Assembly (NCBI RefSeq): GCF_000009965.1
Contig: NC_006624.1
Location: 1,140,001-1,172,000, forward strand
Length of the DNA: 32,000 nucleotides
Origin: Thermococcus kodakarensis KOD1
Lineage (GTDB): Archaea > Methanobacteriota_B > Thermococci > Thermococcales > Thermococcaceae
Direction of reading: 5' to 3'
Made by a program: the position numbers and the translations under genes. Numbering within the stretch: the first letter of the stretch is position 1; every line of letters starts with the position of its first letter. The notes below the pieces were generated by a model that worked only from the letters and a program-made list of their open reading frames with translations, was not told the DNA's origin and did not search any database. Positions 17,774-27,431 of this stretch are shown here, in pieces.

Positions 17774-17852
17774 ACCTCACACCCCTAAATCTAAAATCCC
17801 CTCGCAGAGATGACCTTAAACATTTCGTGAATGTTAAGGAAGGAAAAGGAGC

Positions 17853-18224
17853 TCACTTCATGAGCTCCTTGACCTTCATGGCGATGTCCTCAACGAGCTC
17901 GCGGGCCTTGCCCGGCTCGATGATAGCAACGCTGGCAGCTGGGACTTCAAGGCCAGCGGCCGCTCCAAGCTCCTTCTTGCTCGGGACGTAGACGTACGGG
18001 ATCTCCTTCTCCTCGCAGAGCGGCGGGAGGTGGGCAACGATCTCTTCAGGGTCAACGTCCTCGGCTATGATAACGAGCTTGGCCTGGCCCCTCTCGACGG
18101 CCTTGGTGGTCTCGTTGGTGCCCTTCCTTATCCTTCCGGTGTCCCTTGCGATCTCAACGGCCTCAAGGGCCTTCTCGGCAAGCTCCTGTGGAACCTCAAA
18201 CTTCACGTAGCTCGGCTTCGCCAT
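17853..18224 (-). CDS. rpl7ae: 50S ribosomal protein L7Ae (K-turn binding protein)
   Basis: [63 protein letters not shown] is nearly identical to the 123-aa Pyrococcus/Thermococcus L7Ae as I remember it. The second ATG is chosen because GGAGGG lies 6 nt upstream of it. Confidence 0.95.
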
Positions 18225-18297
18225 CTTCATCCCTCCGAAACCTCATCGTTCATCTGTTTGCACCACCGACTCGGGCTGACCGCTTAAAAGGGTTTCG

Positions 18298-19482: not shown

Positions 19483-19585
19483 TTTTCTCACCCTCGCGGA
19501 GTTTGTTTGTAGAACTTATAATCTTTTGGTTAACGCTTGAGACATTTTGGGAAAACTATCAAATTAAATTGGATAAAAAATTTCA

Positions 19586-19644
19586 AAGCTCAGGAGCGGC
19601 CAAGCTCATCATCCAACTCAGGTTAAGACTCCTCATCATAGCCC
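19586..19644 (-). ncRNA. C/D-box sRNA (2'-O-methylation guide) overlapping the 3' end of the Zn-ribbon CDS
   Basis: The minus strand reads ggggcu-AUGAUGA(19639-19633)-GGAGUCUUAAC(11 nt)-CUGA(19621-19618)-guugg-AUGAUGA(19612-19606)-GCUUGGCCGCUC(12 nt)-CUGA(19593-19590)-gcuu. All four boxes are perfect consensus and the spacings are canonical. A short terminal stem (GGGC/GCUU, comprising 2 Watson-Crick and 2 G-U pairs) leaves a 3-nt bulge. Confidence 0.75.
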
Positions 19645-20234
19645 CGATATATCTCGAGGCTCCTTCTGGCTCTCGCCTTCGGAATCTGGTGGCCCATTAT
19701 GGCCACGATTTCATCTGCCCTGGCCTTCCCGTGGTGGAGCATTTTTCTTTCCGTCTTTATCTTCTCCACCCTGAAGGTGTAGCCCCCGACCTCGATGACT
19801 TCCCCAACGACGAACTCCTCGCTCCTTGGTACCTTCACCTTAAAGGCCTGGGTGATGCCCTTTGGAAGGTAGATAGAGACCTTTATGACCTTCGGGTAAG
19901 TTAAGCTCTCGCCCCAGAGGGTCTTGACTTCTTCCACCTTAGCCTTGTTGACCCTCTTGTCCCCCTCCAGCTCTATCCCTGTTATTCTGACCTCATCGTC
20001 CTCCGTCTCGACGATGTCCCCCACTTTTATTTCTTCACCCTCCGGAAGCTCGGCTTCGCTCTTGAAGCTCCTCTCGTGCTTGCTGACAATGAGAGGAACC
20101 TTCCTGAACTTCGGAAGGGTAACGTGCCAGACGTGGCCGCAGTCGTTACAGCGAAGGGTAAGCTCTCTCCCCCTCTCCCTGATGACCTCAACGTTCTCGC
20201 TACCACATTCAGGACATACGAACAGCTCTTCCAT
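19623..20234 (-). CDS. Uncharacterised archaeal Zn-ribbon protein (COG1326-like)
   Basis: An N-terminal CPECG...CNDCG zinc ribbon is followed by two beta-rich domains. The ATG at 20234 has a GGTGA 5 nt upstream. The last six codons (GYDEES) are shared with the C box and first guide of the sRNA. Confidence 0.7.
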   Translation of the reverse strand: MEELFVCPECGSENVEVIRERGRELTLRCNDCGHVWHVTLPKFRKVPLIVSKHERSFKSEAELPEGEEIKVGDIVETEDDEVRITGIELEGDKRVNKAKVEEVKTLWGESLTYPKVIKVSIYLPKGITQAFKVKVPRSEEFVVGEVIEVGGYTFRVEKIKTERKMLHHGKARADEIVAIMGHQIPKARARRSLEIYRGYDEES

Positions 20235-20267
20235 TTCTCTCACCGGAATGGGAGAAGGGAAAACGGT

Positions 20268-27268: not shown

Positions 27269-27279
27269 GGGAAAGAAGT

Positions 27280-27338
27280 GAGCTCGGCTCTTTTTCTTCA
27301 TCATTATCAATCAGATACCCTAGAGCTCGTCATCGCTC
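27280..27338 (-). ncRNA. C/D-box-like sRNA, distal copy of a tandem pair (variant C box AUGACGA, D box CCGA)
   Basis: The minus strand reads GAGC-g-AUGACGA(27333-27327)-GCUCUAGGGUAU(12 nt)-CUGA(27314-27311)-uugaua-AUGAUGA(27304-27298)-AGAAAAAGAG(10 nt)-CCGA(27287-27284)-GCUC. The 4-bp terminal stem leaves a 3-nt bulge (GAU). A TATA-like CCTTTTAA (27368-27361) is centred about 26 nt upstream of the first stem nucleotide, and a T-rich tract follows. Confidence 0.55.
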
Positions 27339-27371: not shown

Positions 27372-27431
27372 GCGGCTCGGCCAGTATGCCCCTCATCACC
27401 CTTCAGCTATCGTGAGGTTCGTCATCGCCGC
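27372..27431 (-). ncRNA. C/D-box-like sRNA, proximal copy of a tandem pair (variant C box AUGACGA, D box CCGA)
   Basis: The minus strand reads GCGGC-g-AUGACGA(27425-27419)-ACCUCACGAUAG(12 nt)-CUGA(27406-27403)-agg-GUGAUGA(27399-27393)-GGGGCAUACUGG(12 nt)-CCGA(27380-27377)-GCCGC. The perfect 5-bp terminal stem leaves a 3-nt bulge. It starts 9 nt after the GT4 stop codon. A TATA-like GTTTTAAG (27458-27451) lies about 26 nt upstream, inside the CDS end. Confidence 0.6.

Follow-up and report, generated by a model that had tools for sequence, protein, structure and literature searches.

The box elements on the minus strand at the 3' end of TK1313 are, taken as a whole, best explained with high confidence as the known archaeal box C/D methylation-guide sRNA Tko-sR37 of T. 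kodakarensis KOD1. Unless marked as genome coordinates, positions refer to the window, by which we mean the whole 32,000-nucleotide stretch analyzed here. Liu et al. 2022 list sR37, or Tko-sR37, as a 62-nt RNA at genome positions 1159583-1159644 (PMC9014305, Table 1 and Table S3). The catalogued RNA, also named TKOcandSno39/26 (PMC4247193, PMC9014305), has the same locus, strand, and ends as our element and is the object itself. For the wild type, 356,961 small-RNA reads and 44 circular-junction reads were reported, and for a knockout of Rnl (TK1545), 195,173 reads and a single junction read (PMC9014305). The same paper names Pab-sR32 as the P. abyssi counterpart. In supplementary file 8 of Jäger et al. 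2014, the entry TTS1159732_- is listed with both TKOcandSno39/26 and Tko-sR37 (PMC4247193). The tables of PMC9014305 and this start-site listing establish that the RNA is already annotated, detected, end-mapped, and circularized. A preliminary description of this DNA, made from the letters, had proposed a genuine C/D box sRNA and anticipated a transcript of about 57 nt. The proposal is supported, and a discrete 62-nt RNA is present in the published small-RNA-seq (PMC9014305); the catalogue entry went unmentioned in that description.

The boxes were re-read from the letters (Table 1). The perfect C-D'-C'-D set with 11- and 12-nt guides described previously on the minus strand was correct, as were the reverse complements given for both guides. 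The element shows the features of a box C/D RNA, namely perfect C and D boxes near its ends, D' and C' boxes separated by a 5-nt loop, and spacers of 11 and 12 nt. The window ORF at 19623..20243 (-) comprises 206 codons and terminates in G-Y-D-E-E-S followed by TAA. This C-terminus bears out the earlier statement that the C box is built from the Tyr-Asp-Glu codons of a Zn-ribbon gene, and the position of the TAA agrees with the earlier placement of the stop codon inside the D' guide. The strict four-box pattern was found nine times in the 2.09-Mb KOD1 genome, counting both strands, and in none of 15 second-order-Markov simulated genomes.

No Rfam family reached its gathering threshold at the locus, and searches at E-value thresholds returned only sub-threshold C/D matches. 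The generic Pyrococcus C/D model aligned end to end at 19587-19643 with 25.7 bits (gathering cut-off 45). The sR32 model (RF01119) scored 19.9 bits (cut-off 40) and covered only 19582-19620, indicating that the element is not a full-length sR32. Folding of the 62-mer revealed no structure beyond that of shuffled sequences (z = 0.65), as expected of a guide RNA.

Table 1. Features of the Tko-sR37 locus, in window coordinates.
Feature	Position	Strand	Basis and remarks
Mature C/D box sRNA Tko-sR37, 62 nt	19583..19644	(-)	Genome 1159583-1159644; PMC9014305, Table 1/S3
TK1313, CPxCG-related zinc-finger protein (PF19769)	19623..20234	(-)	RefSeq 1159623-1160234 (PMC4247193 supplement); Pfam E=5e-46
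Published transcription start assigned to Tko-sR37	19732..19732	(-)	Inside TK1313 CDS, 88 nt upstream of mature 5' end; PMC4247193 supplementary file 8
C box AUGAUGA	19639-19633	(-)	Read from letters; codons (U)AU-GAU-GA(G) = Tyr-Asp-Glu of TK1313
D' spacer GGAGUCUUAAC, 11 nt	19632-19622	(-)	Read from letters; holds last TK1313 codons and TAA stop
TK1313 stop TAA, inside D' spacer	19625-19623	(-)	ORF translation
D' box CUGA	19621-19618	(-)	Read from letters
Loop GUUGG, 5 nt, between D' and C' boxes		(-)	Read from letters
C' box AUGAUGA	19612-19606	(-)	Homologous to C box of Rfam sR32 in other genera
D guide GCUUGGCCGCUC, 12 nt	19605-19594	(-)	Antisense to tRNA-Gln D-loop and D-stem; wholly outside CDS
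D box CUGA	19593-19590	(-)	Read from letters
Oligo-T tract T6	19580-19575	(-)	9 nt past D box; likely archaeal terminator of TK1313 and sRNA precursor

The protein gene was assigned as TK1313 because the RefSeq coordinates of TK1312 (1158298-1159482), TK1313 (1159623-1160234), and TK1314 (1160268-1161572) in NC_006624.1, as they appear in the PMC4247193 supplement, coincide with ORFs of the window. Its 3' end overlaps Tko-sR37 by 22 nt. The sequence lying some 26 nt before the mature 5' end contains no TATA-like element, as previously described, and this absence indicates that Tko-sR37 is cut from a longer sense transcript. The sequence ATATAT at 19652-19647 was considered as a promoter and rejected, being too near the mature 5' end. 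The precursor would be either the TK1313 mRNA, whose primary start is given as genome position 1160244 in PMC4247193, or a transcript from the start within the coding sequence. An A-rich, weak TATA-like element, AGAUAAAGA, occupies positions -30..-22 relative to the latter start. It falls in the conserved peptide EKIKTE, so its conservation says little about a promoter. The earlier proposal that the sRNA is processed from the 3' end of the mRNA thus stands in so far as the RNA lacks its own TATA element and is cut from a longer transcript, but the precursor need not be the full mRNA, given the start at 19732 in dRNA-seq. Archaeal transcription terminates at oligo-T tracts, and on this basis the T6 tract is likely the terminator common to TK1313 and the sRNA precursor.

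Both guides were searched against the KOD1 16S and 23S rRNAs and the 44 tRNAs found by ARAGORN. The D guide, whose target had been left unassigned in the preliminary description, forms contiguous Watson-Crick pairs at 11 of its 12 positions with tRNA-Gln(UUG) and tRNA-Gln(CUG), at linear positions 14-24, and the sole unpaired position is the one adjacent to the box. Only 3 of 300 shuffled D guides reached an 11-bp run. In cloverleaf numbering, the D-loop of tRNA-Gln reads A14 G15 C16 G18 G19 C20 C20a A A, position 17 being absent, and the duplex extends from A14 to C23. The fifth guide nucleotide upstream of box D pairs with G18. On the strength of this complementarity, the D guide is predicted to direct 2'-O-methylation at G18 (Gm18) of both tRNA-Gln species. 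Complementarity of at least 9 bp to rRNA or tRNA in the fifth-nucleotide register was present for the D guide and absent for the D' spacer.

The D guide occurs in one copy in the KOD1 genome. Its core is invariant in 36 Thermococcus species and in the sR32 of other genera. Two species have variant guides, in which all four substitutions are C-to-U changes opposite a G of tRNA-Gln(CUG) and pairing is kept as G·U, fitting a pairing constraint on the D guide. Guide-target covariation among the relatives included no compensatory double change, the variants pairing through G·U wobble.

For P. furiosus tRNA-Gln, snoRNAdb predicts sR32-guided methylation at C16, as quoted by Wolff et al. 2020 (PMC7668247). 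The spacer of the Pyrococcus sR32 consensus is 1 nt longer than that of Tko-sR37 and predicts C16 rather than G18. The guide register used here is validated by the agreement between this expectation and the quoted snoRNAdb prediction. The predicted sR32-guided methylation of tRNA-Gln was not detected in P. furiosus (PMC7668247). An argument against tRNA-Gln as the target is that the guide could pair only after opening both the D-stem and the D-loop in a tRNA of high stability, and the duplex includes archaeosine-15; therefore, Tko-sR37 may act only on tRNA-Gln precursors. In S. acidocaldarius, a C/D sRNA guides methylation at G18 of tRNA-Gln(UUG), both predicted and observed, which is the same tRNA and the same nucleotide as predicted for Tko-sR37 (PMC7668247). 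This organism belongs to a different phylum, and the likeness, which lies in the target, may be convergent.

To place the locus among its relatives, we searched 81 genomes of the Thermococcaceae with the locus and with a guide-plus-box pattern, and read the loci individually. Tko-sR37 shares with Rfam sR32 (RF01119) and Pab-sR32 the module AUGAUGA - GCUUGGCCGCU(N) - CYGA and the tRNA-Gln D-loop target, with no sequence difference in the leading box, the guide core, or the closing box. The two RNAs differ in arrangement. The sR32 gene stands alone, has a TATA box of its own, and opens with the module (C / D' guide / D'), which is followed by another second guide. In Tko-sR37, the module makes up the closing half (C' / D guide / D), and the half before it consists of TK1313 codons. 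In the genera g5 and g6 and in a single g2 genome, the RNA that opens with the module is a bona fide sR32, scoring 50-57 bits; a TTATAA-type element lies some 30 nt before it, the second guide is again a different one, and there is no linkage to the zinc-finger gene. We found no copy of the second guide of sR32 with a D box elsewhere in the KOD1 genome. The guide-plus-box pattern, which permits just one nucleotide between guide core and box, was recovered from 1 of the 9 g2 genomes; this low yield probably reflects the longer Pyrococcus spacer, not absence. The stand-alone sR32 of g5 and g6 (L051-L063) is divergent from a small ORF about 65 nt upstream on the opposite strand. The product of this ORF has a zinc-ribbon-like start (M-K/D-C-P-F-C), and its sequence is unrelated to TK1313.

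In g1, the genus to which the window belongs, the sRNA carries the module as its second half and always lies at the 3' end of the TK1313 ortholog, as seen in the 36 species with a parsable four-box set. Conservation of the boxes at orthologous loci, a check proposed in the preliminary description, was thereby confirmed. The C box is located in Tyr-Asp/Glu-Glu codons in 10 of the 36 species, three with AUGAUGA and a short spacer as in KOD1, five with AUGAGGA, and two with long spacers (20 and 39 nt). In three genomes with the C box in the coding sequence (G051, G048, and G034; loci L007, L009, and L011), the ORF crosses the C box, the D' spacer, and the D' box, and its stop is the UGA of the C' box. 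In the same three genomes, the next gene begins about 25 nt past box D, so that the sRNA is wedged between two ORFs. The remaining 26 of the 36 species have a separate C box, -1 to +29 nt after the stop, and a D' spacer consisting of a 13-30-nt pyrimidine tract. Separate-C-box loci (L030-L032, L035, L037, L041, and similar ones) carry an inverted repeat of the type CCGG-UGAGAACA-CCGG over the stop codon, just 5' of the C box, which could be a processing or termination hairpin.

One genome, G046 (L028), has the sR32-like order with the tRNA-Gln guide first. Its ORF runs through the C box and the entire guide and stops at the UGA of the D' box, giving the ortholog tail ...ESNDELGRS. Copies of the sRNA are degenerate or missing in G079, G040, and G062. 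For G040 (L018) and G062 (L019), no sRNA was present at the TK1313-ortholog locus and no guide pattern was present genome-wide (see also loci L141 and L142). The tRNA-Gln(UUG) of these two species has a C16-to-U change in the target segment. At many Thermococcus loci (e.g., L010, L014, L020, and L022), a conserved ATCGAAATCCTTTTAAAG appears 5-40 nt past box D, followed about 25 nt on by GCACGCAAAAC and GATGAACGATGAGG. This block, absent in KOD1, resembles a promoter followed by a conserved leader, or else a further small RNA.

The polarity of the layouts was assessed on a nucleotide tree of a single gene, EF-2. G075, which has a separate C box, is placed inside the KOD1 clade with a support of 0.97, and G048, with its C box in the coding sequence, has as its sister G059, in which the C box is separate, at a support of 0.985. 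These shallow clades are firm, but support along the backbone falls to 0.43-0.59, and no ancestral layout is decided by this tree. The gene-sRNA junction is labile, with at least four layouts in one genus and well-supported sister species that differ.

Codon usage and box pairing across these layouts show a real dual constraint on the C-box nucleotides, which serve both as protein codons and as part of a K-turn. All 10 species with the C box in the coding sequence encode this Tyr by UAU, whereas of the 26 species with a separate C box, 5 use UAU and 21 use UAC. For comparison, UAU accounts for 28% of the Tyr codons in long ORFs of the KOD1 genome. In the established geometry of the C/D K-turn, position 5 of the C box faces position 2 of the D box. 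Across the 36 species, this C5:D2 pair is U:U in 31 and G:C in 5, with no mismatch, consistent with K-turn pairing. A CCGA D box coincides exactly with an AUGAGGA C box, both being confined to the same five species. In this G:C state, Glu (GAG) replaces Asp (GAU) in the protein, and CCGA replaces CUGA 45 nt downstream. The C5/D2 change corresponds to at least one independent event, and as the species are related, the events may be few. The equivalent pair of C' and D' is U:U in 16 species, A:U in 13, G:U in 3, G:C in 2, and C:U in 2, that is, pairable or U:U in 34 of 36. The earlier claim that the same nucleotides are constrained by both the protein C-terminus and the RNA therefore stands for the C box, with its invariant UAU and its C5/D2 covariation, but not for the D' guide, which is variable and matches at chance level. 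Similarly, co-variation of the protein tail with the boxes in orthologs was found for the Asp/Glu codon and the U-to-C change of the D box, but the D' spacer varies with codon choice.

Judged by its variation, the D' spacer is an orphan, codon-shaped structural spacer and not a constrained guide. Against the 16S and 23S rRNAs and the 44 tRNAs, its best contiguous Watson-Crick run was 6, a value reached by 141 of 300 shuffles, and no target beyond chance was found for it. Among the closest relatives, the spacer differs at box-proximal positions (GGAGUCUUAAC, GGAGUCUUGAC, and GGAGUCCUGAG) and tracks the choice of the Glu-Ser-stop codons. We also rejected the matches of the pyrimidine-rich D' spacers of other species to the 16S purine tract at about 1219, which include 4-5 G·U pairs, are mutually non-independent, and are unconvincing.

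It is improbable that Tko-sR37 is a true dual-guide sRNA, in which the D' spacer also directs methylation, for instance near position 1116 of 23S rRNA or in the anticodon loop of tRNA-Leu(UAA), and in which guide function also constrains the last codons. The best D' match, to 23S 1116-1126, comprises 9 Watson-Crick pairs, 1 G·U pair, and 1 mismatch, and there is a 7-bp match to U33-U39 of tRNA-Leu(UAA); the spacers of relatives match tRNA-Leu(CAA), tRNA-Leu(CAG), or tRNA-Ser(CGA) in the same register. However, the chance-level run length and the variable box-proximal positions described above argue against guide function, and seven base pairs including a G·U fall short of the minimum of about 8-9 bp in the literature (PMC6009581). 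The 7-bp matches of the D' spacers with the C box in the coding sequence (window 19622-19632; L004, L005, L007, and L008) to U33-U39 of tRNA-Leu(UAA/CAA/CAG) or tRNA-Ser(CGA) were rejected as an incidental consequence of the GAR-UCN-URA codon frame. Together with the common U33/G37-A38 loop context, this frame accounts for the pattern, which represents one coincidence, not several. In most Thermococcus species, moreover, the D' spacer is a 13-39-nt pyrimidine tract. We likewise see only a slim chance that the box set is chiefly cis-acting, with L7Ae on a 3'-terminal K-turn of the TK1313 mRNA controlling termination, stability, or translation, and with the free sRNA as a by-product. A single ribosome footprint takes in both the C box and the stop codon, which would set translation against K-turn assembly on any given molecule; L7Ae-mRNA interactions have been reported in archaea (PMC5539422), and the sRNA adjoins the TK1313 ortholog in all 36 Thermococcus species. 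Nevertheless, the free RNA is very abundant and is circularized like other guide sRNAs, and the invariant part is the tRNA-Gln guide, not the mRNA-proximal half. In other genera, the guide module belongs to an independent gene that has a TATA box and is remote from the zinc-finger gene, and reporter tests of 3' overlaps were neutral or showed slight effects (Tripp 2017, as described in the review PMC7994747). The idea that box-like words fell together by accident at the end of a gene and yield no RNA has nothing in its favor beyond the shortness of the individual boxes. It can be dismissed almost entirely in view of the nine four-box patterns in the real genome against none in the simulated ones, the persistence of the element across genera, and the 62-nt RNA in published RNA-seq (PMC9014305), which refutes this reading.

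With Tko-sR37 taken as a tRNA-Gln methylation guide, we propose the following mechanism. The RNA is excised from a longer sense precursor, which would be the mRNA of TK1313 or an RNA initiated within the coding sequence, and it is trimmed to 62 nt and partly circularized by the ligase Rnl. As in C/D sRNPs generally, L7Ae would bind the C/D K-turn and the C'/D' K-loop, followed by Nop5 and fibrillarin. The D guide, outside the coding sequence, would be the sole functional guide and would pair with A14-C23 of both tRNA-Gln species, placing the ribose of G18 in the fibrillarin active site to yield the predicted Gm18. D' would act as a structural spacer, its sequence dictated by the Glu-Glu-Ser-stop codons, while the C box is Tyr-Asp-Glu codons and half of the K-turn at once.

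A more far-reaching reading, which we put forward only tentatively and regard as possible rather than probable, joins these elements into a natural evolutionary series at the junction of TK1313 and the sRNA. The K-turn C box would have been made from, or absorbed into, the Tyr-Asp/Glu-Glu codons, with the Asp/Glu replacement tied to a U/C change that compensates for it in the D box, 45 nt farther downstream. The tRNA-Gln module would have switched from C/D' (as in sR32) to C'/D. Ribosome termination and sRNP assembly would compete on one transcript, and the overlap might tune TK1313 output or sRNA yield.

Overlaps of this kind have been described. Approximately 25% of the C/D sRNA genes in archaea overlap an ORF at its 3' end and include the stop codon of that ORF (Tripp et al. 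2017, according to the review PMC7994747). Most of them have no promoter of their own, and the overlap can pair an orphan guide with a useful one (PMC7994747). Lui et al. 2018 defined the sense 3'-overlap category and found 61% of the overlapping guides to be without targets; in their account, sRNAs that target tRNAs are for the most part single guides, and related families may differ by replacement of a guide or by circular permutation (PMC6009581). Tko-sR37 resembles this class in that the stop lies inside the sRNA, no promoter is found at the mature 5' end, the overlapping guide is an orphan, and the other guide targets a tRNA. Its stop is in the D' spacer, as opposed to the C box, which is the commonest place in the class (PMC7994747), and this is no difference in kind. 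Since every feature falls within published descriptions and the RNA is catalogued, we rate the element as already known.

As a discovery, the element is therefore minor: the RNA has been catalogued, sequenced, and shown to be circularized, and overlaps of its type have been described as a category. The comparison contributes a target prediction, Gm18 of tRNA-Gln; the available parts of PMC4247193 and PMC9014305 give no target for Tko-sR37 and do not discuss its overlap with TK1313. The comparison also adds an example of dual coding, in which the geometry of the K-turn is linked to one synonymous Tyr codon and to the choice between Asp and Glu in the protein, the half-for-half relation of Tko-sR37 to sR32, and the lability of the gene-sRNA junction. 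T. kodakarensis is genetically tractable, and one synonymous UAU-to-UAC change would part the protein function from the RNA function.

By gene numbering, TK1311 (L7Ae) presumably lies two genes downstream of Tko-sR37, at about 17850-18230 (-) in the window. PMC4247193 identifies TK1311 as L7Ae, the K-turn-binding protein of C/D sRNPs. A second C/D sRNA in the window, matched by Rfam sR51 at 71 bits at 27375-27429 (-), is Tko-sR39, whose published start is at genome position 1167431 (PMC4247193). Just downstream of Tko-sR39, 'sR38' is listed at 1167276-1167338 (window 27276-27338, (-); PMC9014305). Tko-sR39 and sR38 look like a tandem pair.
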